From: a virus
IMG/VR virus record: IMGVR_UViG_3300044769_000068
Location: 1 to 36,619 of that record
Length of the DNA: 36,619 nt
Strand: one strand, 5' to 3'
Each line of letters begins with the position of its first letter. The stretch's first letter is position 1. Below, piece after piece: positions 14,101 to 31,704 of the stretch. The notes under the pieces are model-generated. The model saw only the letters and a program-made list of their open reading frames with translations, was not told where the DNA came from and made no database searches. The position numbers and the translations under genes are program-made.

Positions 14101-14126
14101 GTTTTTATATTAATTAGGAGGTGCAT

Positions 14127-15098
14127 ATGCCCGTCCAGCCGCTTCAACAGATTGCCCCACAAGTTGCCAGAGGTAAGTTCGATGAGTCCTTATGGGCTAA
14201 TCAGAACTATGTTGCTCAAGAGAAGCTCGACGGCGAGCGCTTCAAAATGCATTTCTTTGAAAACGAAAACAGGTTTGATTCCCGTTCGATTTCCAAGAAA
14301 ACTGATCGCTTTACTGAGAAAACGGACAACGTACCACACCTTCGTGACTTTGTAGTGCCCTCGTTGAACGGTACAGTTCTTGATGGCGAAATCAAGTTTG
14401 GTGGAGATAGCATGTCAACCTCAACCATAATGGGCTGTTTGGCCGATGAAGCTGTTAACCGTCAGCGGGAAGCGGGAAAATGGGTTAAGTACTATGTTTT
14501 CGATATCATTTTCTTTAAGGGCAAGGATGTAAGAGATCTTTCATTCATCAAAAGAATGGAGATTTTGCACAAGATATTTAATGACTATTTAGCCTGTAGC
14601 ACAAACTTTATTTTGCCAGTATATACATATGATCACAAGAAACAGTTTTGCGATGATGTCTGGGCTCATGGAGGCGAAGGCGTCATCCTCAAAGATGTTA
14701 GAGCTCCGTATACTGACAAGAAAGCGTGGGTCAAAGTTAAGGCACAGGCGACCTATGATGTCGTCGTTATGGGCTACGAAGAGCCTGAGGCTGAGTCGAT
14801 TAAGAAGGGTGATGACAAGGCTACCATTACTAGACTGGCAGCGAATGGTTGGATTGGCACAGTCGTTTTCGGACAGTATAATAATGGTGAATTGCAGTGC
14901 TTTGGTAAGTGCTCCGGTATGAACGATGCTGATAGAGAGAAGTTCTCTAGGAATAGGGAAAAGATGTTGGGCACGGTCATTAAGATCGAGGCTCAATCAA
15001 GAATCCCTAAGACTGGTTATTTCCGGCATCCTCGGTATCTTGGCATCAGGGAAGATAAGAACGCTGACCAGTGCTTGTTTTACGAAGGAGAGAAATGA
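14127..15098 (+). CDS. ATP-dependent DNA ligase
   Basis: Motif I EKLDGER, III LDGE, IIIa YYVFDI, IV EGVILK, V WVKVK, VI FRHPRY..IREDK; SD AGGAGG. Confidence 0.92.
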   Translation: MPVQPLQQIAPQVARGKFDESLWANQNYVAQEKLDGERFKMHFFENENRFDSRSISKKTDRFTEKTDNVPHLRDFVVPSLNGTVLDGEIKFGGDSMSTSTIMGCLADEAVNRQREAGKWVKYYVFDIIFFKGKDVRDLSFIKRMEILHKIFNDYLACSTNFILPVYTYDHKKQFCDDVWAHGGEGVILKDVRAPYTDKKAWVKVKAQATYDVVVMGYEEPEAESIKKGDDKATITRLAANGWIGTVVFGQYNNGELQCFGKCSGMNDADREKFSRNREKMLGTVIKIEAQSRIPKTGYFRHPRYLGIREDKNADQCLFYEGEK

Positions 15099-15942: not shown

Positions 15943-16016
15943 GCTTACGTAGCATAACGGCTTAATGTCCTACCCTGTCACGGTAGTGGATGCCGGTTCG
16001 AATCCGGTCGTAGGCG
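15943..16016 (+). tRNA. tRNA-Asp(GTC)
   Basis: Cloverleaf; CTACC-ctGTCac-GGTAG; GGTTCGAATCC. Confidence 0.92.
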
Positions 16017-16079
16017 CATCGCTCACCCACCAAAGTGGGAGGAGTGTTCGGAGCCGTCTTACAAAGGCGGTTCCAGTAT

Positions 16080-16155
16080 CCGGGTGTAGCTCAGTCTGGT
16101 TCAGAGCACTGCGTTTGGGGCGCAGGGGTCAGAGGTTCGAATCCTCTTACCCGGA
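16080..16155 (+). tRNA. tRNA-Pro(TGG)
   Basis: Cloverleaf; CTGCG-ttTGGgg-CGCAG. Confidence 0.92.
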
Positions 16156-16355
16156 CATGGGTGATGGTAGAAGCAACGATAGGGTTCGATCCCTACAATA
16201 GCAGAAAGCCTGATCCCACAAACAATTGGGACATGGGTTATTTTCCCCTTTCTCCCAAGGCTCTGTGTTCTCTGCGGAGGCAGTCTACGAAGGATGCTAT
16301 CACTTTTGTAGGACACGCTCCGGTAAACAGCCAGCACGGACGATAGCATATATAT

Positions 16356-16432
16356 CTACGTGTAAGTCAGCCAGGATCTAGACGACTCGGCCTGGAACCG
16401 AGAGGACGCTGGTTCGAATCCAGCCACGTAGA
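16356..16432 (+). tRNA. tRNA-Pro(TGG), atypical C33/A37
   Basis: CTCGG-ccTGGaa-CCGAG; canonical T arm. Confidence 0.8.
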
Positions 16433-16485
16433 CATAGTATACTCACAGAGCCTCTATTTATAAGCGCAAACGCTGTGAGTTTTAT

Positions 16486-16556
16486 GGCCTCATAGGTAAT
16501 TGGTATACCGTCACGTTTACACCGTGAAGTGGGTGGTTCGATTCCATCTGGGGCTA
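16486..16556 (+). tRNA. tRNA-Val(TAC)
   Basis: TCACG-ttTACac-CGTGA. Confidence 0.9.
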
Positions 16557-16609
16557 ATGTTCACTTTTCTTGTATGTTCATGAGACGTGAACATGTAGTA
16601 AAAATGAAC

Positions 16610-16685
16610 GGTGGTCGTGGTGAAGAGGTTTTAACACGGTTGGTTGTGACCCAACTATGCGCGGGTTCGAATCCCGTCGATCACC
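16610..16685 (+). tRNA. tRNA-His(GTG)
   Basis: G-1:C73; GTTGG-ttGTGac-CCAAC. Confidence 0.92.
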
Positions 16686-16702
16686 CAGAAACAGGAGGCA
16701 TC

Positions 16703-17239
16703 ATGGACAGCAGAGTACTTCTCTTAAATTCAAGCTACGAACCAGTAAGCCTTATCAGTGCCGAGCGTGCTATTGTGTTGTGGTATTCAGGTAAGGTCAC
16801 TGTTGTAGCTGAAAGAGATATTACTTGGAGATCAGTTTCTGTTGCCATCAAGGTGCCTTCAGTAGTTAGACTTATAAACTATGTGAGAGGACTTACTGGT
16901 CTTCGAAACATTGTAAAGCTCACTAGAAAGAACATTCTTCTTAGAGATGCTTATACTTGTCAGTACTGCGGTAAGAAAGCTGGCCCTGACAAGCTTAACA
17001 TCGACCACATCGTCCCTAAGGGCCAGGGTGGTAAGAGTGAATGGACCAATTTGGTGACTGCATGTATCCCATGTAATAGCTCTAAGGATTGTCAGACGCC
17101 AAAGCAAGCAGGCATGACTTTGAGAAAGTCGCCAAAGAAGCCAGACTTTTTGGTGTTCACTATTCATCGTCATATCAAGAACGTTCCAGAGGATTGGAGA
17201 TCATATCTCTACTGGAATACGGAAATAGATCAAGCGTAA
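16703..17239 (+). CDS. HNH endonuclease (McrA-like)
   Basis: SD AGGAGG before MDSRVLLLN; RDAYTCQYCG, IDHIVP, WTNLVTACIPCN; the upstream extension in the ORF track overlaps tRNAs. Confidence 0.9.
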   Translation: MDSRVLLLNSSYEPVSLISAERAIVLWYSGKVTVVAERDITWRSVSVAIKVPSVVRLINYVRGLTGLRNIVKLTRKNILLRDAYTCQYCGKKAGPDKLNIDHIVPKGQGGKSEWTNLVTACIPCNSSKDCQTPKQAGMTLRKSPKKPDFLVFTIHRHIKNVPEDWRSYLYWNTEIDQA

Positions 17240-17242
17240 TGG

Positions 17243-17271
17243 TGTACAAATAATTCTACTTGTGATATAGT
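17243..17271 (+). promoter_or_regulatory. Phage promoter
   Basis: TGTACA-N17-TATAGT. Confidence 0.75.
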
Positions 17272-17279
17272 AGAATCAT

Positions 17280-17712
17280 AATCAGGAAGCCCTTGATGTT
17301 GGATGGGCGTTAATAAACTCCTCCCTCCTGGTTATTGTGGCAAGACTCGGCAGACTACCGTTGAAGCCGTTCGCCCTGGATTCAGGGGATGGTGGAGGAA
17401 TCTGGAAGGGATAGCGGCCGCTTACCTTCACGGTCTGATCAACCGCTTGGGCCGATGGTGGGGATCCGAATCCGAGATATAATCGATCCCATTTATTACC
17501 CTTGGTTGCCGGAGCCAAATTGAAAACCGGTGGTTGTGTAGACTAATTAAGGTTTAGGGTAAGCCTCCTGAGTAGCCTAGAGGGCGAAAAGGTGATTTCT
17601 CGAGATAAAAACCCTTTTAGTTTAACTGTGGTTAGAGCGTTAGTAGGTTCATCATTGTTGGCTCATAAAAGCAAGACTAGTTGCCAGATCTAGAAATTAA
17701 AACTGGCTTTTA
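17280..17712 (+). ncRNA. Candidate large structured ncRNA, family unknown
   Basis: No credible ORF; starts right after a promoter; many helices. Confidence 0.5.
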
Positions 17713-17713
17713 T

Positions 17714-17786
17714 GGACCCATATACTAATGGTTAGGTAACGGGCCTTTCAAGTCCGGAGCGGTGAGATCAATACTCCCTGGGTCTA
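17714..17786 (+). tRNA. tRNA-Glu(TTC), atypical T loop ATCAATA
   Basis: CGGGC-ctTTCaa-GTCCG. Confidence 0.8.
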
Positions 17787-17850
17787 ATTATTTATTCAAG
17801 CTTAACGCAAAAAGTTCGAATTATCTCCTAATTTAGAATATAAGGAGATA

Positions 17851-18510
17851 ATGATGAATTGTGAAAAATGTAATAAAGAACATGACGGCAAGTACGGTTC
17901 TGGTAGATTCTGTTCTCGGAAATGCGCCAATAGTAGAATTCGTTCAGAAGAAACTAGAAAGAAAATCGCATTAAATACTACGTATCATTTTGTCGAACGA
18001 GTTTTGTTTAAGTGTGCTCATTGTAAGAAAGAAGTAATTTTTAAAAAATCTTATTTAAAGCTAAAGAAAACGGGATGTTGTTCTAAGTGTTTTCGATTGT
18101 CTAAAGAATATAAGAAAGCATTAAAGAAGGGCTGTTCCAGTAACGGCGGATATAGAGTCGGTTCAGGAAATGGTTTAAGAGGAATATATCAAGGATTTTG
18201 GTGCGACTCGTCTTGGGAGTTAGCTTTTGTAATATATAATATTGATCACCAAATTTCGTTTGAGAGAAATAATAAGCCGTATGTATATGAATTTGAAGGG
18301 CGGAGAAGGTATTACCCAGATTTTATTATAGATGATGTTTTCTATGAAATCAAGGGCTATCATTTTCCAGAAGCCACAAAGGCGAAGTTGAAGTATTTTC
18401 CGCACAAAATAGTTTTAATAGGGAAAAAAGAGATTAAGCCGTATTTAGAATATGTTGAACAAAAATACGGAAAAGATTTTGTAAGGCTCTATGAAGTTTG
18501 CCCTCATTAG
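17851..18510 (+). mobile_element. Free-standing putative homing endonuclease (Zn-finger + PD-(D/E)xK)
   Basis: CEKC/FCSRKC; DSSWELAF; YYPDF...EIKGY; AT-rich relative to flanks. Confidence 0.75.
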
Positions 18511-18542
18511 GCATGGGACGAGGTTCAACTCCTCAAAGGGCG
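18498..18542 (+). pseudogene. 3' remnant of a CAT-anticodon tRNA
   Basis: TGCC-ctCATta-GGCA arm, GAGG-TTCAACT-CCTC T arm and 3' acceptor strand; no 5' half. Confidence 0.55.
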
Positions 18543-18544
18543 CA

Positions 18545-18840
18545 TATGCGCGGTGCCAGAGTGTGTGATGTCCATCGATCACAATGGGCGCTTAGGAAGT
18601 CGGGAAGCGGCGCATGGCTAGAAGGAAACGGTAACGGTGTGGAGGATTGGGACAACCCTGACTCTTTCCCAGTCCAAGCGCGAAGTCGGTCGGTAGCTCA
18701 CTCTAATGAGCAGAAGGCGGCCGCTTGAGTGTAAAATCACTCATCTACGTTGAGAGGTGGCGACGGCCACTTTGAGTAGATTGCCGGAATAACCTATTCT
18801 TTGGGCCAGTCCGATGCAAGCTAAAGCATCGCCCGCATAT
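18545..18840 (+). ncRNA. Candidate structured ncRNA (~295 nt), family unknown
   Basis: Closed by ATGCG/CGCAT; about 7 internal hairpins; no credible ORF. Confidence 0.55.
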
Positions 18841-18842
18841 AT

Positions 18843-18916
18843 GTCCCTGTCATCTAGCAGGCTAAGGATGGTGGCCCCTCAAGCCATCCACAGGGGTTCA
18901 AATCCCCTCAGGGACA
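18843..18916 (+). tRNA. tRNA-Glu(CTC), C33
   Basis: GTGGC-ccCTCaa-GCCAT. Confidence 0.85.
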
Positions 18917-18960
18917 CAAACAGGGGAAGCGATTATCTGTATAAAATATACGCTTAATAC

Positions 18961-19044
18961 GCCGTCGTAGACATCTATGGAGGGTGGCCAGGCTGTAACC
19001 CTGGCGTCTATGAGGCCATCTAGGTTCGATTCCTGGCGGCGGCA
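18961..19044 (+). tRNA. tRNA-Tyr(GTA)
   Basis: CCAGG-ctGTAac-CCTGG, long V arm. Confidence 0.88.
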
Positions 19045-19046
19045 CA

Positions 19047-19122
19047 TGGCGTGGATAATCCGACAAGGGTTAGAGACGGGGTTGACAAGACCTGCGGTCA
19101 CCAGAATTAACTGGCACGTCAA
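19047..19122 (+). ncRNA. Degenerate tRNA-like RNA
   Basis: TGGCGTG/CACGTCA acceptor, TAATCC/GGGTTA D arm, CCAG-AATTAA-CTGG T-like arm; anticodon ambiguous. Confidence 0.5.
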
Positions 19123-19125
19123 CAT

Positions 19126-19200
19126 GGGCTTGTGGTGTTAATGGATTAGCACACTCGGCTTTTAACCGATGGGGTGGGGGTTCGAGTCCTCCCAGGCCTA
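19126..19200 (+). tRNA. tRNA-Lys(TTT)
   Basis: TCGG-ctTTTaa-CCGA. Confidence 0.88.
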
Positions 19201-19203
19201 ATT

Positions 19204-19277
19204 GCTCCGGTAGTATAACGGTTTATTATAGCCGGCTCTTACCCGGTCAGATCGGGGTTCAAATCCTCGTCGGAGCA
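19204..19277 (+). tRNA. tRNA-Lys(CTT)
   Basis: GCCGG-ctCTTac-CCGGT. Confidence 0.9.
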
Positions 19278-19280
19278 CAT

Positions 19281-19352
19281 GTCCTTTTAGTGAAATGGAT
19301 CTCACGCAATGTTCCTACCGTTGAATTGTAGGTTCGATTCCTACAAAGGACA
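19281..19352 (+). tRNA. tRNA-Arg(CCT)
   Basis: CAATG-ttCCTac-CGTTG. Confidence 0.88.
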
Positions 19353-19431
19353 CATATAAGATAGCGCTGGGGTAAGGCTGACCACCCCAGTCCGGTTAGC
19401 TGGTCACTAATTGGACTCCTGGCGCTTATAA

Positions 19432-19628
19432 TAGTCAATCGAGCCATCGCACTACGGTGAGGAAGCTCAGGACATCCCGGAGACCTGTGGGAGGCTAAAG
19501 CCGTCTAACCACTGATACGAAAGCGGGATGCAACGCAAACAGGTCTAGATAAGTCTCGTTCTAAGGACCGGGTTGCGGCCAATAGAGAAATGATGGCATA
19601 AAACAGAATCCTGGCTACTGATTGATTA
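19432..19628 (+). ncRNA. rnpB: Miniature RNase P RNA (type A-like catalytic domain, vestigial S domain)
   Basis: P1 TAGTCAATCG/TGATTGATTA; P2 GCCATC/GATGGC; P3 CAC-TACG-GTG; CR-I GAGGAAGCTCAGGA pairing with CR-V ACAGAATCCTGGCTA (P4); P5 CATCCCG/CGGGATG; P6 GAGAC/GTCTC; P15 with GGT; AGAGAAATGA CR-IV. Confidence 0.85.
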
Positions 19629-19631
19629 CAT

Positions 19632-19704
19632 GCCCTCTTAGTGAAACGGATAATCACGTTGCGCTTCGAACGCAAAGATAGGGGTTCGAATCCTCTAGAG
19701 GGTG
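19632..19704 (+). tRNA. tRNA-Arg(TCG)
   Basis: TTGCG-ctTCGaa-CGCAA. Confidence 0.9.
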
Positions 19705-19709
19705 CATAC

Positions 19710-19785
19710 GGTCGGATAGGATAAGTTGTCCAGTCTAGCAAGTACACCTAGATGGGAGCAGGCTAACGCTCTGCAATGACCACCA
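19710..19785 (+). ncRNA. tRNA-like RNA with 9-nt anticodon loop and encoded CCA
   Basis: GGTCG/TGACC-ACCA; GGATA/TGTCC; TCTAG-caagtacac-CTAGA; GCAGG-ctaacgc-TCTGC. Confidence 0.55.
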
Positions 19786-19788
19786 AAT

Positions 19789-19859
19789 GGGTTGTTCGTC
19801 TAATGGTAAGACAAGTGCCTCCAAAACACTTTATGTGGGTTCGATTCCTACACTTCCCG
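19789..19859 (+). tRNA. tRNA-Trp(CCA)
   Basis: ctCCAaa loop; two U-U mismatches in the acceptor stem. Confidence 0.85.
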
Positions 19860-19870
19860 CAGGAGATAAA

Positions 19871-20458
19871 ATGAGTATTAAAAGCTATTTCACCTGGGCT
19901 CCAAAGTTACCTAAGAAACCCGTGTATGATATGGATGAGGTGATGGAATCTTTTGAGTATCGTAAAGAGACTACATTTGAGAATCACTATTTGAATGTCT
20001 ATTACTGGTTTAAGAGAAACTTTGATTTTCTCTGGACACCAGCCATCGCAAAGGGCTACATAAAGCGCGCATGTCAGATTATCGTTCGTGGATGGAGCGA
20101 TAGAGATATCTGGTCATTAGATTGGACTATCGCTAAGTTTGCTCTACCTAGACTGATCAGACTCAAAGAAGTAATGCACGGTGTTCCCAACTCGATGTTT
20201 GAACCGCTTCCAGAAGGTGAGCATAATCATGATAAAGAGCAAATGGCGGCAGCCGAAAAGAAGTGGAACGAAACGCTTGATGAAATCATTTTTGCTATGG
20301 ACTATATTGCTAATTGTCGTGAGCACGATTATTACCCCAAGAAAAAATGGCCAGAAAAAACCGTTAGAGAAGACTACGTAGAGCTTAGAGCCGTAGAGGA
20401 AAGAGTTCAAAAAGGTTTAGCGTTGTTTGGAACCCACTTCAGAAGTTTGTGGGATTAA
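19871..20458 (+). CDS. Hypothetical phage protein
   Basis: SD AGGAG; start revised to lie downstream of tRNA-Trp. Confidence 0.8.
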   Translation: MSIKSYFTWAPKLPKKPVYDMDEVMESFEYRKETTFENHYLNVYYWFKRNFDFLWTPAIAKGYIKRACQIIVRGWSDRDIWSLDWTIAKFALPRLIRLKEVMHGVPNSMFEPLPEGEHNHDKEQMAAAEKKWNETLDEIIFAMDYIANCREHDYYPKKKWPEKTVREDYVELRAVEERVQKGLALFGTHFRSLWD

Positions 20459-20459
20459 T

Positions 20460-20533
20460 GCCTCGACTAACTCAAATGGTTAGAGTGCGAGTCTGAAAAG
20501 CTCGAAATTCCGGTTCGATTCCGGGGCGAGGCG
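20460..20533 (+). tRNA. tRNA-Phe(GAA)
   Basis: CGAGT-ctGAAaa-GCTCG. Confidence 0.88.
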
Positions 20534-20537
20534 CATT

Positions 20538-20608
20538 GCCGGCGTAGCTCAAAAGTAGAGCAATCGGCTGATAACCGATCGACGGAGGGGCAGTACCTCT
20601 CGACGGCA
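20538..20608 (+). tRNA. tRNA-Ile(GAT), T loop GGCAGTA
   Basis: ATCGG-ctGATaa-CCGAT. Confidence 0.85.
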
Positions 20609-20615
20609 CATTTGT

Positions 20616-20644
20616 TGTACAGCCGCTACAGCTTATGATATAAT
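20616..20644 (+). promoter_or_regulatory. Phage promoter
   Basis: TGTACA-N17-TATAAT. Confidence 0.8.
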
Positions 20645-20671
20645 GTATTCATAAATAATCGAGGTGAGTGC

Positions 20672-21037
20672 ATGTTAGAACTTTTATTCTTTCTAGTCTT
20701 TACGCACTTCGTAATGGATTTTTGCATGCAATCGGATTTTATGTCAAAGTATAAAGGCAAGCTTCCGTTTGTGATGTTTGTGCATGTATTTGTCTGGACG
20801 TTTGCGGTTTGTTGGATGGCAACTTATTTCGGAGCTTTGTCTTGGTGGGCTCCAATTTTCTTGTTTGTGGGACACTGGGCTTGCGATCAATATAAGATTC
20901 ATTTGATCGAAAAAGAAAACTTGAAGGATGAAGCTAATCCGGACGTGCTATCCAGATTAAAGTTCTTGTTTCATGCTGATCAAGTTTGGCATTTAGTTCA
21001 GCTTTTAATTGTAGCAACACTTGGGGTCTTAGTTTAA
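20672..21037 (+). CDS. DUF3307-like membrane protein
   Basis: HFVMDF..Q...K, H...H, HW..D, DQ.WH; hydrophobic segments. Confidence 0.7.
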   Translation: MLELLFFLVFTHFVMDFCMQSDFMSKYKGKLPFVMFVHVFVWTFAVCWMATYFGALSWWAPIFLFVGHWACDQYKIHLIEKENLKDEANPDVLSRLKFLFHADQVWHLVQLLIVATLGVLV

Positions 21038-21093
21038 TGGGAAAACTCTCGGCTTGCACCCGAATGATAAGGGTTCGATTCCCTTAGGCTCCA
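21023..21093 (+). tRNA. tRNA-Ala(TGC)
   Basis: G3:U70; ctTGCac loop. Confidence 0.88.
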
Positions 21094-21183
21094 CATGGGA
21101 GGGTGGCGAGACAGCACTCTCATTCGCCGGCCAGTCTGCAGCTCGGACCGGGATACGAATGCTTGAGCCACCCAACCAGCCAC

Positions 21184-21251
21184 ATTCTGTTAGTTTAATA
21201 AAACGCCTTCTCGTAGAGAAGGAGATGCTGGTAGATGGCCGGCACAGAATA
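21184..21251 (+). ncRNA. Degenerate tRNA-like RNA (GTA at anticodon position)
   Basis: ATTCTGT/ACAGAAT; GTTT-aata-AAAC; CCTTC-tcGTAga-GAAGG; GCTGG-tagatgg-CCGGC. Confidence 0.6.
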
Positions 21252-21323
21252 ATTTTAAACTCAAGGAGGATGTACACATGATAGAGAGTATCTAGTCTGG
21301 CTAGCCAGACATAGGAGGCTATC

Positions 21324-21455
21324 ATGGGTTACTATCCTCATCGAGATAGAACCGCCAAGAACTACGGGGAAATGGGATCCAACCCCAACCGCAAGCGTCG
21401 TGGCAAGAAACGCGGAATGAAGGCTGGCAAGCAGAAGAAAGCTCGTCGAGCCTAA
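21324..21455 (+). CDS. Small highly basic protein (43 aa; not in ORF track)
   Basis: SD AGGAGG; MGYYPHRDRTAKNYGEMGSNPNRKRRGKKRGMKAGKQKKARRA. Confidence 0.7.
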   Translation: MGYYPHRDRTAKNYGEMGSNPNRKRRGKKRGMKAGKQKKARRA

Positions 21456-21536
21456 CAAAAATTTGTCAAAGGCTCAGGACGCTGAGAAATGGGCAAATAG
21501 TGTGGAGTCCCAGGCACTATAAATACTGGGTCATTT

Positions 21537-21608
21537 GGGGCTATAGCTCAGAGGGAGAGCGTTCCGGTGGCATCGGAAAGGCCAAGGGTTCAATCCCCTT
21601 TAGCTCCA
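21537..21608 (+). tRNA. tRNA-Ala(GGC)
   Basis: G3:U70; TTCCG-gtGGCat-CGGAA. Confidence 0.9.
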
Positions 21609-21609
21609 C

Positions 21610-21691
21610 ATTCGGTTCGTCTAATTTAAGGACGCTCTCTACTTTCTGGAAACAGGGGAGGGAAACGCTGGTAAAACAGCACCGAATACCA
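21610..21691 (+). ncRNA. Anticodon-less tRNA-like RNA with encoded CCA
   Basis: ATTCGGT/ACCGAAT-ACCA; D arm; long arm capped by CTG-GAAA-CAG; GCTG-gtaaaa-CAGC. Confidence 0.65.
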
Positions 21692-21694
21692 TAT

Positions 21695-21765
21695 TCCCTT
21701 ATCCTTCAACGGCAGGAGAGGTGACTGTTAATCACTCAATCGAGGTTCGAATCCTCGTAGGGGAG
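21695..21765 (+). tRNA. tRNA-Asn(GTT)
   Basis: GGTGA-ctGTTaa-TCACT. Confidence 0.9.
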
Positions 21766-21787
21766 CATTTCAACAAGGAGGTCTTAT

Positions 21788-22042
21788 ATGCAATGCACAA
21801 ATTGTCATGCTGATATTGGTGCTTGGCTGTTGAAATATAGAGTTATGCCCAAAGTTCGGCTTGATGAAATGTACTTTAAAGAAGAAAAGCTTGTTGCAAA
21901 AATGGACGAATCTGGCATTTATATTGACGGCCAGAAGTTTTACGAACACGAATCTAAAAGATGCCACGAACGATGCCCAAAATGTGGCGCAAAAAATACT
22001 GTAAGAGTAGAGTACGACGAAGTTACTTGGGCGCCCATCTAA
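21788..22042 (+). CDS. Hypothetical Zn-ribbon protein
   Basis: SD AGGAGG; CTNC...CPKC. Confidence 0.7.
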   Translation: MQCTNCHADIGAWLLKYRVMPKVRLDEMYFKEEKLVAKMDESGIYIDGQKFYEHESKRCHERCPKCGAKNTVRVEYDEVTWAPI

Positions 22043-22043
22043 T

Positions 22044-22115
22044 GCGGGTGTAATTCATCGGTAGAATACCTGGTTGCCAACCAGAATGCGGTGGGTTCGA
22101 TTCCCATCACCCGCT
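22044..22115 (+). tRNA. tRNA-Gly(GCC)
   Basis: ttGCCaa loop, U73. Confidence 0.9.
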
Positions 22116-22186
22116 CAATACAATCCCGGGCTTGATATGTAATCAGCCGGCGTCGCGCTGACAAGAATCAAGGTAGTCAGAAGCAA

Positions 22187-22257
22187 GGTTCCTTATGTTA
22201 ATGGTAGACGGTCTCCGTGACATGGAGAAGACAGAAGTTCGATTCTTCTAGGAACCA
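22187..22257 (+). tRNA. tRNA-Val(GAC)
   Basis: TCTCC-gtGACat-GGAGA. Confidence 0.88.
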
Positions 22258-22260
22258 ATT

Positions 22261-22333
22261 GGCCTTGTAGACCAACGGCAGAGTCAACAGTCTGAGAGGC
22301 TGTGCAGTGTGGGTTCGAATCCCACTAGGGCCA
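22261..22333 (+). tRNA. tRNA-Leu(GAG), short variable loop
   Basis: ACAGT-ctGAGag-GCTGT. Confidence 0.88.
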
Positions 22334-22334
22334 C

Positions 22335-22586
22335 ATGCAGAAATCAGAGAACAAAATAAAGCCGATGTACTTTTGGTCAGATGGCTATAAAGAATTCGGC
22401 ATACTAGAACCCGATCACAAGAAAATAAAAGAAGATGAATTAGTAGATGCTAACGAAGAGGAAAGCGAATTTATTTTTGAACCAACAATAAAAATCTCCA
22501 ATAGACAGACTAAGCGAAGGAAACTCAGAAATTTTCTTAAAAGTGAAGTACAAAAAGCGCTTCGGTACGCAAGATTTTATCGCTAA
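22335..22586 (+). CDS. Hypothetical protein
   Basis: ORF between tRNAs. Confidence 0.5.
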   Translation: MQKSENKIKPMYFWSDGYKEFGILEPDHKKIKEDELVDANEEESEFIFEPTIKISNRQTKRRKLRNFLKSEVQKALRYARFYR

Positions 22587-22599
22587 AAGGAGGTCGCGC

Positions 22600-22821
22600 A
22601 TGAGATTCAAAAAGACAACCTGGTACAACATGAAGACCGACAGTGCGAATTATGGCATCAAGATTAAGTATGCAAATCTCAAGTTCTTGGACGTAGCTGA
22701 AAACGGAAAGCCTCTCATTTTTGAAACAGAACTAGAACGGGATGAAAAAATTAAGCAGATAAAGAGAGACAGCAAAGCAAAAGACTTTGAATCAAGAATG
22801 AAGTTTGTCAGAGCGATATAG
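22600..22821 (+). CDS. Hypothetical protein
   Basis: SD AGGAGG before MRFKK. Confidence 0.65.
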   Translation: MRFKKTTWYNMKTDSANYGIKIKYANLKFLDVAENGKPLIFETELERDEKIKQIKRDSKAKDFESRMKFVRAI

Positions 22822-22824
22822 AAC

Positions 22825-22897
22825 GGCCTCGTACCCCAACGGCAGAGGGAACACGTTTAGACCGTGTACAGTGTCGGTTCGAATCCGACCGGGGCTA
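22825..22897 (+). tRNA. tRNA-Leu(TAG), short variable loop
   Basis: ACACG-ttTAGac-CGTGT. Confidence 0.88.
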
Positions 22898-22904
22898 ATG
22901 ATTT

Positions 22905-22981
22905 GCCCGCTTAGGTTAAAACAAGCAAACCGGCGGTTTTGTACATCGCTAATACCGCTGCAAACGCGGTAGCGGGCTCCA
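22905..22981 (+). tRNA. Atypical tRNA-Thr(TGT) with encoded CCA
   Basis: GCCCGCT/AGCGGGC-TCCA; GCGGT-ttTGTac-ATCGC; T loop TGCAAAC; D loop lacks GG. Confidence 0.7.
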
Positions 22982-22987
22982 GCAAAC

Positions 22988-23058
22988 GCACTCATAGTTC
23001 AATGGCAGAACAACTGTTTCGTAAGCAGTAGATCTCGATCCGATTCCGAGTGGGTGCT
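22988..23058 (+). tRNA. tRNA-Thr(CGT)
   Basis: ACTGT-ttCGTaa-GCAGT; T loop TCCGATT. Confidence 0.82.
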
Positions 23059-23156
23059 CATGAAAAAGAATAAACAAAATAAACAGCGGATGTTTTATTG
23101 GCAAGTTTCTAAGAAGAATGGTAAAATCTTTATATGCAAGCTTATAGAGATTAAAC

Positions 23157-23837
23157 ATGAAGAATAGAACAGAAGTAAAGTATGTGATTAAGCTTTATGA
23201 AGCGCAATGGGACAGACACCATAACGAATCGGTCAAGCCATTTTTTGAGCAGCTTCAGAGAGAATGTTTTGACGATGGTGATGGCCACGATCCGCTATTT
23301 TCATATTACGTATTCCAGACGGCAGAAGGAATCGAGGCAGCGCTTAATTACAAGCTCGACGTTGGATTAGATGGCCGGCTAAAGATAGGGTATTTTGGAG
23401 TGCACGGTCAGACAGACCAGATTCAAGCGCTTAAGCCCATCAATAGGATGAAGCTTAGAAATATTTTAATTAAGACGACCAACTTCGACGGGCTGTATTT
23501 CGGTACGTGCGACTTTGCTAATAGAAAAACAGCAGAACTATTGCTGAATAACATATCCACACTCAAGTGGGTCGCTGGCTTTTCTAAGTGGACGCCGTGG
23601 TTGGAAGGTACGATTTGTGATATACTGTTCTTTAGGCTGTTGTTGTCAGGTCGTTTCAGAAGGCCGTCCCATACAAACACCAAGTGGGACATAATGACTA
23701 AGCCAGAGGACGCTGCTAGACACTTGTATGAAATTTATCCAATGGCTGTTGATTTAAAGTTCTCGCTGTTTTATAGAGGGTCTAGCGGCATTAATTCAAC
23801 GTATGATGACTGGACAAATAGGATAATGGCATTATGA
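23157..23837 (+). CDS. Hypothetical protein, possible caspase/CHAT-like fold (DUF6642-like)
   Basis: YFGVHG...LYFGTC...VAGFSK..W: His-Gly and Cys spacing. Confidence 0.5.
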   Translation: MKNRTEVKYVIKLYEAQWDRHHNESVKPFFEQLQRECFDDGDGHDPLFSYYVFQTAEGIEAALNYKLDVGLDGRLKIGYFGVHGQTDQIQALKPINRMKLRNILIKTTNFDGLYFGTCDFANRKTAELLLNNISTLKWVAGFSKWTPWLEGTICDILFFRLLLSGRFRRPSHTNTKWDIMTKPEDAARHLYEIYPMAVDLKFSLFYRGSSGINSTYDDWTNRIMAL

Positions 23838-24070
23838 TAAAATACCTCGTAATCTTTTTTGCATTAGTTCTTACCGACATTGTATGGGCTCTCTACATTA
23901 GATGGGCTGCAAGTGGTAAAGCAATGAAAGCGGGACTTTCGTCTATTCTCATTTATGTCATAGGCGCTTTTACATTCGGTGAGTTCATTAAAGATACGTG
24001 GGTTTTGATTCCTGCCGGATTAGGCTGTTTTGTGGGAACTTACGCAACGATAAAATGGCTAGACAAGTAG
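23834..24070 (+). CDS. Small membrane protein
   Basis: Three hydrophobic segments. Confidence 0.7.
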   Translation: MIKYLVIFFALVLTDIVWALYIRWAASGKAMKAGLSSILIYVIGAFTFGEFIKDTWVLIPAGLGCFVGTYATIKWLDK

Positions 24071-24141
24071 GGTCGTGTAGCTCAATAGTAGAGCAGTCGC
24101 CTTATAAGCGACCGACGAAGGGGCAGAACCTTCTACGACCA
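24071..24141 (+). tRNA. tRNA-Ile(TAT), T loop GGCAGAA
   Basis: GTCGC-ctTATaa-GCGAC. Confidence 0.82.
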
Positions 24142-24159
24142 ATCGACAAGAGGTGAAAA

Positions 24160-24849
24160 ATGTGTAAGCCAGGACATTTATGGATAAACGATCTCAAAAT
24201 TGATACGATAATAGATGTCGGCGCCAATGTTGGTGACTTTTCAAAAGAAATGCGGAAATATAGACCAGAGGCTCTTATCTATGCCTTTGAGCCCTTGCCA
24301 TATGAATACGACGCACTAATTACAGCTTTCAAATACGATAAGCGGTTCAAATCCTTTAATTTAGCTTTATCGGATAAGGAAGCAGTCGTTCCGTTTAACG
24401 TAACAAGTTTTGGCCCTGCAAGTTCTATATTGCAGATGAACGACACTCTAATCGATTATATTAATAATGGGTTTAAGACGAACGTAACTGCATCGCCAAT
24501 TCTTGTTCAAGCAGTTACATTGGACTCAATTTTTGCCGATAGCATTTTGGGTCCATCCCTTTTAGTAAAGATAGACACTCAGGGATTTGAAGACAAAGTA
24601 ATAAAAGGTGGCGAGAAAACTATTCGTAGAGCAAAAGTGTGCTTTCTTGAAACAGAGTTTCAGCCGCTATACAAAGGACAAGCTTTATTTATAGACATAT
24701 TGAATCAAATGGACGCGCTTGGCTTTACTTATTTTGGCGATAAGGATTACGTTTCATATCACCTGACTAATGGTACGGCGCTTTGGCAAGATAGTATTTT
24801 CGTGAACAAAAGTCTCTTGAAGGACGGTGTTTATCAAGGGCTCTCGTAG
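24160..24849 (+). CDS. FkbM-family SAM-dependent methyltransferase
   Basis: IIDVGANVG, YAFEP, ALSD, TLD, KIDTQGFE..VIKGG. Confidence 0.9.
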   Translation: MCKPGHLWINDLKIDTIIDVGANVGDFSKEMRKYRPEALIYAFEPLPYEYDALITAFKYDKRFKSFNLALSDKEAVVPFNVTSFGPASSILQMNDTLIDYINNGFKTNVTASPILVQAVTLDSIFADSILGPSLLVKIDTQGFEDKVIKGGEKTIRRAKVCFLETEFQPLYKGQALFIDILNQMDALGFTYFGDKDYVSYHLTNGTALWQDSIFVNKSLLKDGVYQGLS

Positions 24850-24912
24850 GCCAACGGCAGAGTCAGCAGGCTTAAACCCTGTACAGTGTCAGTTCGAATC
24901 TGACCGGGAGCA
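24840..24912 (+). tRNA. tRNA-Leu(TAA), short variable loop
   Basis: GCAGG-ctTAAac-CCTGT. Confidence 0.88.
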
Positions 24913-24915
24913 CAT

Positions 24916-24987
<72 letters not shown>

Positions 24988-24995
24988 CATTTTGA

Positions 24996-25024
24996 TGTAC
25001 AATCAAATGCATTTGTGGTATAGT
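24996..25024 (+). promoter_or_regulatory. Phage promoter
   Basis: TGTACA-N17-TATAGT. Confidence 0.75.
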
Positions 25025-25080
25025 AGTTATATCAATTGAAAGGAGCCAAAATCCAACGATGGGAAGGAAGACCCACCGCG

Positions 25081-25596
25081 ATGAAAAAGATATTAATAAT
25101 CACGATTATAGCATGTACGGCTTTGTTCGCATCCATGTTTACAAGACCGGATCAGAGATTGTTGCTTACGCTGGATTCGGTGAATCACCCGGATGTGATA
25201 CAAGTAGAAAAGATGATAGACAAGACGGGAGCAGATGTCCCGGCAGTTACAAAAAAGAAAGTGGCCCTTGCTATAGCAGAACATGCTAAATACTATGGAA
25301 TAAAACCAAAGAATTTAGTTGCTATAGCATTTGTTGAGTCAAAATTTCAACCAACCCTTATCAATAGTACAGGCGACCATGGATTGATGCAGATCAATTG
25401 GCCGACTTGGAAGAACAGATTCACAAGAGATCCAAAAGATCTTCTTAACGTCTACAAGAATGTAGAAGTTGCATGCAAAATTATCAATATAAACAAAAGC
25501 ATGGGACAGACTGACTTGGCCGATTATCATTCTTTTAATGATGAACCAAAAGCCATTTATCAGGCTAAATTAAGAGAAGTTCTGAGGAGGCTCTAA
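25081..25596 (+). CDS. Lytic transglycosylase (SLT domain) with N-terminal signal/anchor
   Basis: AIAFVESKF, GLMQIN, NV..AC.I motifs. Confidence 0.85.
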   Translation: MKKILIITIIACTALFASMFTRPDQRLLLTLDSVNHPDVIQVEKMIDKTGADVPAVTKKKVALAIAEHAKYYGIKPKNLVAIAFVESKFQPTLINSTGDHGLMQINWPTWKNRFTRDPKDLLNVYKNVEVACKIININKSMGQTDLADYHSFNDEPKAIYQAKLREVLRRL

Positions 25597-25934
25597 TGTC
25601 TAATACGCTCGACGCTGTAAAGGCAACACTGACGAGAGAGAGAACTGCGCTAGACAAAGAATTGAAGCAGCCTTGGTACGACACATTTGTTTGTGGTGCG
25701 CTTGTCTGCGGGATTGCCGTGGCCATCGTAATCATGTTTTTAGACACGAAGAAATACGCTATTCAAGAGAGAATGACGAGAATGCATATAGAAGCTGTAA
25801 CAGCTACAGATAAAAATTGTAATGATTGTCATTTGGGCGCTTCTTTTGTTAATTTATTCAACCACCCAATGGTGAAAGCTGATGATAATGTCATTACTCT
25901 CATGATGGATAAGGCTAAGATAAAGCGATGGTAA
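25596..25934 (+). CDS. Membrane protein with CxxCH motif
   Basis: TM helix then CNDCH. Confidence 0.6.
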   Translation: MSNTLDAVKATLTRERTALDKELKQPWYDTFVCGALVCGIAVAIVIMFLDTKKYAIQERMTRMHIEAVTATDKNCNDCHLGASFVNLFNHPMVKADDNVITLMMDKAKIKRW

Positions 25935-26052
25935 AAGAATACAAAGAAAAAGAATTTTTTAATTGCGAGTTTTGCCGTTGCAGAACTAATGCAAATCTTC
26001 GTAGATGCTGTGAATTGGGCTACGAGGCTGATTTAAGAAAGAGTAAGAAATT

Positions 26053-26140
26053 AGCGGGTGAATCGGCGGATGTGCAGATACCAGCCTCATAAGCTGGGAG
26101 ACAAAATCTCTAGCCTGTTTAACTCAGGTACCCGCTACCA
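26053..26140 (+). tRNA. CAT-anticodon tRNA with long variable arm and encoded CCA
   Basis: AGCGGGT/ACCCGCT-ACCA; CCAGC-ctCATaa-GCTGG; V arm GAGA-caaaa-TCTC; T loop TTTAACT. Confidence 0.7.
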
Positions 26141-26214
26141 ATAAGCAGTTTCCCTTGCTAAGTGCCGGGGAGTAAAACGAGAGGGTGATAACGCTCCTCT
26201 TGTTCCTGCACAAC

Positions 26215-26286
26215 GGCTTACGAATAAGTATTCAGCTGCGGCTCATAACTGCGGCCTACTCGGGGCGGTACCGAGGTAAGCCACCA
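26215..26286 (+). tRNA. CAT-anticodon tRNA with tRNA-Pyl-like compact architecture
   Basis: GGCTTAC|GAAT-aagt-ATTC|a|GCTGCGG-ctCATaa-CTGCGGC|cta|CTCGG-ggcggta-CCGAG|GTAAGCC-ACCA. Confidence 0.7.
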
Positions 26287-26291
26287 CAAAT

Positions 26292-26362
26292 TGACCTATG
26301 GTGAAACAGTATCACGGTTGGCTTTGAACCAGCAGTCCGAGGGGCGGCACCTCGTGGGTCAG
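26292..26362 (+). tRNA. tRNA-Gln(TTG), T loop GGCGGCA
   Basis: GTTGG-ctTTGaa-CCAGC; U1:A72, G73. Confidence 0.82.
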
Positions 26363-26369
26363 CATACAT

Positions 26370-26440
26370 TGGCACATCGTTCAACGGTAGGACAAACGGC
26401 TCTGACCCGTTCAATCGAGGTTCAAATCCTTGTGTGCCAG
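26370..26440 (+). tRNA. tRNA-Gln(CTG)
   Basis: AACGG-ctCTGac-CCGTT. Confidence 0.9.
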
Positions 26441-26588
26441 CATAAGAAAGCCTGTGGTCATAGAACTCATCAGCCAAGAGCTGAAGGAGATGGGCTAGCC
26501 CTAGTGCGTTAGTCTTGATTTTAGATTGGTGCCAGGTGATGGAATACTGGCTCAAATACCGTTATACCCAGACGGAGCCAATCTTTAC

Positions 26589-26672
26589 GGTAAGGGTCCG
26601 GCATGGACGAGGACACCGGCTTGAACCCGGCTGGCTGTAAAAGGCTCAGGAGTTCGATTCTCCTCCTTATCG
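26589..26672 (+). tRNA. tRNA-Ser(TGA)
   Basis: ctTGAac loop, long V arm, G73. Confidence 0.85.
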
Positions 26673-26768
26673 CACGTGCAAGACAGGAAAAGTCTAAGGA
26701 AATCGCCAACGCCTTAGAGGACTGAGTAATCAACGCAGGGTGGCTCCGGTTGATTCGTCTTGCCGTTT

Positions 26769-26859
26769 GGTGGAATACTCTAGTCTGGTAAGAGGCAGTC
26801 TTGGAAAGGCTGTGCACACGGTGAGAGCCGTTACGTAGGTTCGAACCCTACTTCCACCG
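26769..26859 (+). tRNA. tRNA-Ser(GGA)
   Basis: CAGTC-ttGGAaa-GGCTG, long V arm. Confidence 0.9.
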
Positions 26860-26877
26860 CATAAAAAGGAGAAATGC

Positions 26878-27048
26878 ATGGATGCTGACTTAATTAAAAG
26901 GGTCGTTTCATTATGTGTTGAAGGTCTTACAACAGACGGCGGTCATCACAAACAGTGGTATTTAGAGCAGATTCTTAGATCGATTTCTGGGGCTCGTTAT
27001 CATGAATTTAAACGAGAACATGAATGGGAAAAGGGAATAGCACCATAA
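26878..27048 (+). CDS. Small phage hypothetical protein (56 aa; not in ORF track)
   Basis: SD AGGAG; DGGHHKQWYLEQI...WEKGIAP. Confidence 0.75.
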   Translation: MDADLIKRVVSLCVEGLTTDGGHHKQWYLEQILRSISGARYHEFKREHEWEKGIAP

Positions 27049-27049
27049 C

Positions 27050-27081
27050 GGTAGGGATCCGGCTGGATGAGAAATAGTCTT
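27050..27081 (+). pseudogene. 5' half-remnant of a tRNA-Ser-like gene
   Basis: GGTAGGGATCCGGCTGGATGAG resembles the 5' end of tRNA-Ser(TGA) at 26589. Confidence 0.45.
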
Positions 27082-27168
27082 GGTAAGATGCTAGAGTCTG
27101 GCTAATTAGCTCCGTTTCGAAAGCGGATGGGTGTAAAAGCCACGTGAGTTCGAATCTCACTCTTACCC
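27082..27168 (+). tRNA. tRNA-Ser(CGA)
   Basis: TCCGT-ttCGAaa-GCGGA, long V arm. Confidence 0.88.
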
Positions 27169-27226
27169 ATAAGTAGCAAAAAGCCTCGAACTCTTCCTAA
27201 TTTAGAACATTAGGAGGAAAGAAATC

Positions 27227-27871
27227 ATGTATAAATTCGTAGTCTATAAAACAATAAATCGTATCAATAATCGTTATTATGTTGGTGTTCACAGAACCAA
27301 AGACATAAACGATAGATACTTGGGTTCTGGCATTCTTTTAAAGGTTGCAATCAAGAAGTATGGTAAAGAGAACTTCACAAAAGAGATCCTTGCAATCTTC
27401 GATTCTTATGAAGAAGCTTTCAATAAAGAACGAGAAATTGTTACTCTTGAATTAATAGAAAAGGGCGAATGCTATAACCTTCATTGCGGTGGCGATGGAA
27501 ATTGGGATAGCATCAACTACGGAAAGTTAAAATATCTTCATCCCTCGTCTAATTGGGCTGTCGCAGATAAAAAGATTAAAGAAAGAATGACAAAGGGCGG
27601 TCTAAAGGGATTTAAGCACGCAAGAGAAATTAAATCTCAGATGATAAAAGACGGCCTACTTAAAAATGATTCTTTTAAAGGCAAAAGACATTCAGACGAG
27701 TTTAAGCAAAGATTATCGATTATAATGAAAGAAAAACAATGCGGAGAAAACAATTCACAATACGGGACTTGTTGGATTCATAATGATTCACAGAGCAAGA
27801 AAGTACGAAAAGAAGAGTTGGATGGTTTTATAGAAAGTGGTTGGAAAAAGGGTAGAGTACTCAAGTGGTAA
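27227..27871 (+). mobile_element. Free-standing GIY-YIG homing endonuclease (Seg-like, NUMOD3-type motif)
   Basis: VVYKTIN..N.RYYVGVH...YLGSG...E; FKGKRHSDEFK; AT-rich. Confidence 0.85.
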
Positions 27872-27935
27872 AGAGGGGAGTTTGCTAAACTCTTAGGGTG
27901 TAAAAGCCGCGCAGGTTCGAATCCTGCCTCTATCG
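27851..27935 (+). tRNA. tRNA-Ser(GCT)
   Basis: GGAGT-ttGCTaa-ACTCT, long V arm. Confidence 0.9.
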
Positions 27936-27938
27936 CAC

Positions 27939-28010
27939 GTCCTTGTAGGCTAATGGATAAACCGAATGGCTACGAACCATTCATTGTGAGTTCGAATCTC
28001 GCCGAGGACA
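27939..28010 (+). tRNA. tRNA-Arg(ACG)
   Basis: AATGG-ctACGaa-CCATT. Confidence 0.9.
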
Positions 28011-28011
28011 C

Positions 28012-28191
28012 ATGAAATATTTATACTGGATAAATATCCACTACGCATGTTATGGTATAATAGTACATGACGGCGTAGTAATCGAGGCACCGCCGATTGC
28101 TAAGTGGGCCATTGGTAAGACCTTCGATGATTTCAAGAAGTTCGTCAAGAAAAAAAACGGCCAGATAAAAGGTAAGCATCTGCCGGGTTAG
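28012..28191 (+). CDS. Small phage hypothetical protein (59 aa; not in ORF track)
   Basis: MKYLYWINIHYACYGIIVHDGVVIEAPPIAKWAIGK... Confidence 0.65.
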   Translation: MKYLYWINIHYACYGIIVHDGVVIEAPPIAKWAIGKTFDDFKKFVKKKNGQIKGKHLPG

Positions 28192-28252
28192 TCTAATGGT
28201 AAGACGCCTCTTTGGTAAGGAGGAAACACGAGTCCGATTCTCGTACTTGGCT
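28182..28252 (+). tRNA. tRNA-Thr(GGT)
   Basis: CCTCT-ttGGTaa-GGAGG. Confidence 0.85.
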
Positions 28253-28255
28253 CAT

Positions 28256-28328
28256 GGCTCTTTGGGTGAATGGTTATAGCCAGCTGCCTGCAAAGCAGTG
28301 AAAACTGGTTCAATTCCAGTAAGAGCCT
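28256..28328 (+). tRNA. tRNA-Cys(GCA)
   Basis: GCTGC-ctGCAaa-GCAGT, U73. Confidence 0.9.
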
Positions 28329-28335
28329 CATTTGT

Positions 28336-28364
28336 TGTACAACCGCTGTAATTTATGATATAAT
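28336..28364 (+). promoter_or_regulatory. Phage promoter
   Basis: TGTACA-N17-TATAAT. Confidence 0.8.
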
Positions 28365-28417
28365 GGATTCAAATGGAACAAGGTGATTGTTCCACTTACA
28401 ACAGGGAGGAGATCCCA

Positions 28418-29488: not shown

Positions 29489-29524
29489 CCGCGGAGAGCG
29501 GTTGGGACAGGAAGGAGATTCCAA

Positions 29525-30901: not shown

Positions 30902-30902
30902 T

Positions 30903-31691: not shown

Positions 31692-31704
31692 AAGGGAGGA
31701 CCAA

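Follow-up and report, generated by a model that had tools for sequence, protein, structure and literature searches.

The window, as we term the whole 36,619-nucleotide stretch of DNA analyzed here, carries on its + strand a gene for a miniature RNase P RNA, 197 nt long from P1 to P1', which lies between two tRNA-Arg genes found with ARAGORN and Rfam (Table 1). The upstream tRNA gene ends 78 nt before P1, and the downstream one, which scored 62.2 bits against the Rfam tRNA model, starts 3 nt after the end of P1. The array around the gene comprises 37 tRNAs within positions 15943-33119, all on the + strand; ARAGORN identified 33 of these and the other four were seen by Rfam only (16356-16432, 19126-19200, 20538-20608 and 24071-24141). 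Several tRNA pairs in the array are only 2–3 nt apart (AU or CAU). Two flanking spacers have stable predicted folds (Table 1) and showed no similarity to any other family locus with which they were compared; they may represent tRNAs that have degenerated or small RNAs of the phage. Small unannotated ORFs are numerous near the locus, and genes for NAMPT and an NMNAT-NUDIX fusion (NAD salvage), an RNA ligase, an ATP-dependent DNA ligase and HNH endonucleases are interleaved with the tRNA array (28373-30901, 33421-34419, 14121-15098 and 16529-17239).

The window belongs to a virus contig of 116 kb from IMG/VR, estimated to be 71% complete, in which a search with a covariance model built in this work (R1, described below) found one copy of the gene. 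The record encodes portal, tail sheath and tube initiator proteins, DnaE-type and family-A polymerases, DnaB and RNR, and based on its portal, sheath, DnaE, PolA and RNR genes the carrier is a tailed phage, a real myovirus. The portal protein has 40–42% identity to portals of the Herelleviridae, such as those of the Bacillus phages CP-51 and SP8, and the host is possibly a member of the Bacillota. The DnaE-type polymerase is fused to a UDG-like domain and is encoded besides the family-A enzyme (portal and polymerase observations at G000, L257:8892-10580 and L256:7131-11114).

The catalytic (C) domain is complete in the RNA and has the bacterial/archaeal type-A architecture; P18 and nearly all of the specificity (S) domain are missing. 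The sequence-only reading that preceded this work had drawn the catalytic core by hand, and a script check found each of its helices where that reading had placed it, with Watson-Crick or G-U pairing at every pair. Of the elements that characterize the bacterial family RF00010, the RNA has the hallmark P4 pseudoknot (CR-I GAGGAA..UC and CR-V ACAGAA....GGCU.A) with its bulged U, the C-domain helices P1, P2, P3, P5, P15 and P16/17 with the P6 pseudoknot, and the substrate-contact nucleotides (the A248 equivalent and the GGU of L15). The S domain of that family (P7-P14 with the CR-II/CR-III T-loop module) and P18 are lacking: the window RNA has no P8, P9, P12, P13, P14, CR-II or CR-III, and about 3 nt stand in place of P18, as do 1–4 nt in all family members. 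The minimum-free-energy fold of the RNA (z = -2.2) yielded P1, P5, P15 and P16 unaided.

Table 1. Positions of the miniature RNase P RNA gene, its neighbors and the structural elements of the RNA in the window.
Feature	Position	Strand	Remarks
tRNA-Arg(CCT)	19281-19353	+	
Spacer	19363-19426		Y-shaped two-hairpin fold, -29 kcal/mol; uncalled by any tool
Miniature RNase P RNA gene	19432-19628	+	
P1	19432-19441 / 19619-19628	+	10 bp, 2 G-U
P2 GCCAUC / GAUGGC	19443-19448 / 19592-19597	+	6 bp
P3 hairpin	19450-19459	+	3 bp, UACG tetraloop; length differs among homologues
J3/4 and P4 5' strand GAGGAAGCUCAGGA (CR-I)	19459-19472	+	Bulged U19467
P4	19464-19472 / 19609-19616	+	8 bp around bulged U19467
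P5 CAUCCCG / CGGGAUG	19473-19479 / 19524-19530	+	
P6 pseudoknot GAGAC / GUCUC (P17 loop)	19480-19484 / 19553-19557	+	
Specificity-domain remnant	19485-19523	+	39 nt between P6 and P5'
Remnant stem	19487-19490 / 19509-19512	+	Internal loop GA / GUCUAA
Remnant hairpin GGC-UAAA-GCC	19493-19502	+	
Remnant mini-hairpin C(GAAA)G	19518-19523	+	
J5/15 GCAA	19530-19533	+	A19532 equivalent to E. coli A248 by alignment
P15	19534-19536 / 19575-19577	+	3 G/C pairs supported
P16/P17	19542-19569	+	
L15 loop GGGUU	19570-19574	+	Contains CCA-binding GGU
GCCAAUAGAGAAAUG (no P18), P2 3' strand, J2/4 AUAAAACAGAA	19578-19608	+	
P4 3' strand UCCUGGCU (CR-V)	19609-19616	+	Pairing, covariation
tRNA-Arg(TCG)	19632-19705	+	
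Spacer	19706-19788		Cloverleaf-like 83-nt fold, -22.5 kcal/mol; uncalled by any tool

The window RNA was compared with E. coli M1 RNA, for which the RefSeq-annotated rnpB gene of 377 nt (L155:321-697) served as the reference. The two RNAs have in common P1-P5 and P15-P17, the P4 and P6 pseudoknots, the bulged U, the GAGGAA and ACAGAA..GGCU sequences, the A248 equivalent, the L15 GGU and the J18/2-like motif AGA.AAAUG. Unlike the 377-nt M1 RNA, the RNA of the window is 197 nt long, virus-encoded and located in a tRNA array, and it has no cognate rnpA. The comparison also agreed with the earlier statement that P18, CR-II and CR-III are absent. CR-I reads GAGGAAAGUCCGGG in E. coli and GAGGAAGCUCAGGA in the window, with U69 corresponding to U19467. 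Two P4 pairs located 5' of this bulge have been swapped together (A67-U359 of E. coli to G-C, and G68-C358 to C-G), which bears out the suggestion that the P4 strands differ from those of E. coli in a compensatory way; the position of G68-C358 is Y-G across the phage family. At J5/15, GCAAGG in E. coli is matched by GCAACG, in which GCAA is equivalent to G246-A249. L15 reads CCCGGGUAGGCU in E. coli (G292, G293 and U294) and ACCGGGUUGCGG in the window, so that the CCA-binding GGU is retained; GGGUU as a whole aligns with E. coli 291-295. From J18/2 through the 3' strand of P4, the sequences are CUAGAUGAAUGA...ACAGAACCCGGCUUA in E. coli and AUAGAGAAAUGA...ACAGAAUCCUGGCUA in the window.

A local Rfam scan with permissive filters, the check that the sequence-only reading had proposed, matched RNaseP_bact_a (RF00010) to positions 19431-19633 with 52.3 bits over the full span of the model (positions 1-367). 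The E value was 2.4e-15 for the 461 nt searched, or approximately 2e-13 when scaled to the 36.6-kb window, and the alignment leaves out about 140 S-domain positions of the model. Since the gathering score of RF00010 is 100 bits, the RNA is not a member of that family by the gathering criterion, and no Rfam 15 family reached its threshold on it. At gathering thresholds only tRNAs were identified in the window, and no RNase P match in the whole record. When matches in the window with E values up to 10 were considered, RF00010 was the sole family listed, together with one lower-scoring overlapping match from the same clan whose family was not displayed. The window RNA therefore has a significant, full-length covariance-model match within the RNase P RNA clan (CL00002), and because it falls short in both the S domain and the gathering score, it is not an ordinary RF00010 member but a virus-borne variant of RNase P RNA.

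In INPHARED we found a single partial relative, from the 595-kb uncultured phage LR756511, with compensatory changes in P1, P2 and P4. To collect homologues from IMG/VR, exact matches were sought to a pattern of CR-I and CR-V separated by a gap of 115-145 nt, and 78 places were obtained. R1 was built from 30 of the sequences found by pattern; it matched 75 of 80 sources at 82–160 bits and did not accept the other five, which had a chance-like appearance by eye. Versions of the pattern with shorter and longer gaps gave 75 further matches, bringing the family obtained from three exact-pattern scans and R1 to 150 matches in IMG/VR with lengths of 153–257 nt. The J18/2-P2-J2/4 motif, when used as a collecting pattern, gave chance matches only. 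The window RNA scored 154.7 bits with R1 (19434-19628), a score that is partly circular as this RNA is among the 30 seed sequences. The Rfam bacterial and archaeal models detected only five of 15 other family members, at 28–44 bits, and a local Rfam scan of the LR756511 relative gave no RNase P match, yet R1 scored it at 120 bits. In members of 153–171 nt the loop closing P5 contains the P6 strand alone, and longer members differ merely by an extended hairpin in the remnant of the S domain.

The family is a phage family. Matching R1 at full length and lying in a co-oriented tRNA array, the two features by which we define it, both hold for the window RNA. Among 62 distinct family loci, 53 contain tRNAs and 35 have a tRNA within 100 nt, and all 707 tRNAs at these loci are co-oriented with the ribozyme gene. 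In about 18 of the 62 homologues a co-oriented tRNA starts no more than 10 nt downstream of P1, as in the window; the gene thus occupies a “tRNA slot” in the array. The same pattern was found at 67 places in representative genomes of 185,579 prokaryote species (one genome each), approximately the number expected by chance, and only four strong R1 matches were obtained from those genomes. All four are on tRNA-rich MAG contigs of 2–13 kb, which are most likely mis-binned phage DNA, and the miniature form is essentially absent from cellular chromosomes.

The family loci held some additional features. In the complete 488-kb phage genome at L208, which has direct terminal repeats, there are two miniature RNase P genes approximately 300 nt apart (1883-2082 and 2375-2616, with 76.6 and 65.3 bits). 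In the tRNA regions of other phages, the neighbors of miniature RNase P genes included tmRNA (119 and 97 bits) and a c-di-GMP-I-GGC riboswitch aptamer, whose 64.5 bits exceed the gathering score; a YrlA-like match was weak, with 37.7 bits. The loci of these structured RNAs are L069:1020-1390, L037:1261-1644, L146:417-497 and L035:1299-1413.

Covariation was assessed in 62 distinct sequences using a model-based alignment in which P4 and P6 were kept as separate pseudoknot brackets. Mean column identity was 41% in a MAFFT alignment of the homologues. Standard pairs occupied 81.1% of cells compared to 56.1% after shuffling, and the covariation score was 0.591, which none of 500 shuffles reached, compared to 0.166 after shuffling. 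When the 3' partners were slid by 1–3 columns, the score fell to 0.07–0.14. R1 treats P4 as a nested helix though P4 crosses P2, and the P2 and P4 pairs were recounted separately; support for these two helices is conservative because the alignment was not fitted to their true pairing. Covariation in P1, P2, P4 and P5, on which the earlier reading had said its interpretation should be judged, was evident. In P1, 72% of cells were paired and all eight tested pairs changed on both sides; in P2, 89–98% of cells were paired and six of six pairs covaried. P4 was paired in 99.8% of cells, and the four of its pairs that are free of the search pattern covaried (GC/AU/CG/UA). The first four pairs of P5 were approximately 100% paired, with 2–42 double changes each.

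The remaining helices behaved similarly, with pairing in 96% of cells in P3 (two of three pairs covarying) and in 98% and 95% of cells in P15 and P16, respectively, in both of which every pair covaried. P15 had originally been drawn as CGCAA/TTGCG; only its three G/C pairs are supported by covariation, and the AA/UU extension falls in the conserved internal loop of L15. P6 was tested apart from the other helices because its register shifts between subfamilies, and J5/7 and the P17 loop were joined by at least five Watson-Crick pairs in a row in 87% of the 62 homologues, in contrast to 6.8% when different sequences were combined and 10.5% when the loop was shuffled. A broader complementarity test for P6, over wide regions and with G-U allowed, did not discriminate. 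Of the unpaired nucleotides, GCAA of J5/15 was nearly invariant in 61 sequences, the GGT of L15 was invariant or nearly so, and AGA.AAAUG, ACAGAA and the bulged U of P4 were conserved. GAGGAAG.UC was also invariant across the family, which was partly forced by the search pattern; more generally, the invariance of GAGGAA..TC and ACAGAA....GGCTA was imposed in part by the patterns with which the homologues were collected.

Together, these data show purifying selection on all the core helices as well as on the nucleotides for catalysis and substrate binding. The RNA is a true, selected homologue of RNase P RNA which has kept every element known to be required for chemistry and for recognition of the acceptor end, and it belongs to a large family of phage RNAs whose genes lie in tRNA arrays in the same direction as the tRNAs. 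The main observation of the sequence-only reading, that of a miniature RNase P RNA with its C domain complete and its S domain nearly gone inside a tRNA array, was upheld by homology, covariation and context. These same data make it extremely improbable that a host rnpB was captured and is now decaying, that the resemblance arose by chance, or that the gene is cellular and its contig mis-binned. In favor of such explanations are the score under the Rfam gathering threshold and the few relatives that the Rfam models see. A relic is contradicted by the covariation, as all helices are kept by compensatory changes in 62 sequences of such low mean identity; the record also encodes phage portal and sheath proteins, and in the species genomes scanned this form is essentially absent from cellular chromosomes.

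The S-domain remnant had the size of about 40 nt noted earlier. It is not arbitrary filler and instead is a conserved module composed of a covarying stem of 4–5 bp, an internal loop with GA opposite GUYNNA(A) and a capping hairpin of variable length. This arrangement of stem, GA, hairpin and GUYNNA(A) was present in nearly all of the 62 homologues, and the inner hairpin was paired in 89–98% of cells and covaried. The subfamily to which the window RNA belongs has an added C(GAAA)G, a tiny GNRA-type hairpin. The 3' strand of the remnant, CCGUCUAACCAC, resembles E. coli 226-240 (CACGGUAAACUCCAC), and we infer that the two may be homologous; the E. coli segment comprises the 3' strand of P7 and A232-A233, which contact the T stem of the tRNA. 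A T-loop or P10/11 A-minor reading of the remnant is speculative. A kink-turn reading of its internal loop was dropped, as the tandem G-A pattern does not fit. The RNA had been proposed to act independently of the tRNA elbow. Its elbow-reading domain has been almost entirely lost, but this independence is uncertain because part of the P7/P10-11 region is still there in conserved form.

The tRNAs of the window look like ordinary RNase P substrates, judging from their genes. A canonical T loop (GTTCRANNC) is present in 31 of the 37, both neighbors of the ribozyme gene included, and six deviate. U(-1) was found in 24 of 37, a strong enrichment given that T makes up 26% of the region, and G(+1) in 31 of 37. 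The proposal that the ribozyme is suited to many tRNAs with non-canonical T loops was consequently weak, and with 31 of 37 T loops canonical we rejected service to aberrant tRNAs as its main rationale. Examples of the deviant T loops are GGGGCAGUACC at 20538 and 24071 and UCCGA in two tRNA-Thr; further tRNAs listed beside these as Rfam-only or deviant in the T loop are at 17713, 22905, 22988 and 28182, the last of which (28182-28253) has a deviant T loop. None of the 37 tRNA genes encodes a 3'-CCA, and the conserved GGU of L15 could therefore pair with its partner only after CCA addition. The precursors of T4 follow an order of this kind.

These features of the array also bear on whether the RNA might be an active ribozyme that works with another partner, either alone or with a phage protein, or on other targets, such as spacers, tRNA-like elements or phage mRNAs. 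Substrate choice would be expected to loosen once the elbow-reading module is lost, and possible targets or partners are at hand in the structured non-tRNA spacers that flank the ribozyme, the six tRNAs with deviant T loops and the numerous small unannotated ORFs nearby. We nevertheless consider such a role unlikely, as the arrays are dominated by canonical tRNAs enriched in U(-1) and G(+1), the flanking spacers are not conserved at other loci and no candidate cofactor was found.

With regard to the protein partner, rnpA (PF00825) was not found in the 116-kb record, as the earlier reading had noted for the window, or in ten large carrier phage genomes, eight of which are at least 95% complete. 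As the record is 71% complete, a phage cofactor could sit in its missing part. The CCA-adding enzyme (PF01743) was also not found in the record. In bacterial holoenzymes the protein binds at P2/P3, the J18/2-like region and J2/4, all of which are retained in the window RNA. The lack of rnpA is consistent with the phage RNA borrowing host RnpA, as had been proposed. Together with the retained protein-binding regions, it also fits a non-catalytic mimic or decoy that keeps the surface for binding RnpA and titrates the host protein or competes with host M1 RNA, by which host tRNA maturation would be reprogrammed or shut down with no cleavage by the phage RNA itself. However, selection has also kept the bulged U, the A248 equivalent, the L15 GGU, P6 and the P15-17 architecture, elements that serve chemistry or substrate docking and are not needed for protein binding, and a place inside an array of putative substrates favors processing. 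A decoy is disfavored by these conserved catalytic and substrate-binding nucleotides, and we regard it as quite improbable.

We therefore return to the reading that we favor, and consider probable, in which the product of this phage gene is a miniature catalytic RNase P RNA that matures the phage pre-tRNAs together with host RnpA. The RNA would be transcribed as part of the tRNA polycistron and released in the manner of a tRNA, and its 3' end would arise when RNase P cuts in front of the downstream tRNA-Arg, at that tRNA's 5' end. It would then assemble with the RnpA protein of the host, as we infer from the lack of a phage rnpA, and its predicted action is to cut the 5' leaders off the phage's own pre-tRNAs. 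Lacking the module that reads the elbow, the ribozyme would rely on contacts between its A248 equivalent and U(-1), between the GGU of L15 and the 3'-CCA, and between the protein and the leader; the CCA would be added post-transcriptionally, given that no tRNA gene in the window encodes it. In this way the phage would have its own means of processing tRNA 5' ends when about 37 tRNAs are made in a burst.

Precedents for such an RNA come from the laboratory. The C domain of E. coli RNase P RNA without its S domain is catalytic with and without protein and needs a P6-like pairing; in engineered C domains of E. coli and Pyrococcus furiosus such a pairing was important and P18 was dispensable (PMC5839562). 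The elements kept and lost in the window RNA are exactly those of these laboratory C domains, which fits the favored reading. On the other hand, ribozymes consisting of the C domain only were less efficient in vitro (PMC5839562), which counts against it. Also against the favored reading are the score below the Rfam gathering threshold and the presence of a conserved GGU without a co-transcribed CCA partner.

RNase P RNA, the ribozyme that trims new tRNAs, is regarded as a universal housekeeping component of cells. Our searches of the full-text literature turned up no description of an RNase P RNA encoded by a virus, and none is reported in studies of diverged CPR RNase P RNAs (PMC8172020) or mycobacterial tRNA clusters (PMC6582537). 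On the evidence of sequence and context, we lean towards the view that the 150 or more matches of 153–257 nt represent a previously undescribed, virus-encoded family of natural C-domain-only RNase P ribozymes that would be catalytically competent, transcribed together with the tRNA array and released from it, and able to recruit host RnpA, so that phages could mature their tRNAs without host rnpB. If this is true, they would be the first RNase P of a virus and, among natural RNase P RNAs of the bacterial type, the smallest. Active members would represent natural experiments in minimal RNase P design, in which the S domain and P18 are dispensable and P6, the L15 GGU and the P4 bulge are not, in agreement with the laboratory truncations. 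They would also add catalytic RNA to the translation-related functions of large phages and provide compact ribozymes of 150–200 nt for studies of mechanism and structure. Annotation pipelines that apply gathering thresholds currently overlook the whole family.

The phage RNA differs in several respects from the small RNase P RNAs that are known. The type-T RNAs of archaea (Thermoproteaceae, Pyrobaculum; PMC3579882; RNaseP-T in Rfam) are also approximately 200 nt with the C domain kept and the S domain mostly lost. Type T, however, belongs to archaeal cells and acts with archaeal proteins, whereas the window RNA is viral and has RF00010 as its best Rfam match; for some of its relatives RF00373 was best, and there was no RNaseP-T match among those listed at E values up to 10. 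Loss of the S domain in the phage RNA appears independent of that in type T. The engineered C-domain ribozymes (Eco CP RPR and the Pfu C domain; PMC5839562) have the same list of parts, including a P6 or “P6-mimic” that matters; they are laboratory truncations of reduced efficiency, in contrast to the phage RNA, which is natural, widespread and selected and has a remnant module of its own. The theta ribozymes (minimal, HDV-like) are likewise phage-encoded, lie beside phage tRNA genes and have been proposed to process tRNAs (PMC10879173). They self-cleave, act on 3' trailers and have an unrelated fold, whereas the phage RNase P RNA would be a trans-acting 5' endonuclease.

RNase P RNAs in MAGs of Micrarchaeota and other DPANN archaea (L097:5713-5920, L102:3629-3845, L120:4580-4779 and L147:3959-4186) are of similar size, approximately 200–228 nt, and have the same spacing from CR-I to CR-V as the phage RNA. 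They scored weakly on R1 (21–33 bits), in contrast to 82–93 bits over the full span of RF00373, whose gathering score is 84 bits. All are in cellular contigs, one of them beside a 23S rRNA gene, and none is in a tRNA array. This looks like a reduction in size of cellular RNase P RNAs, which possibly occurred independently.
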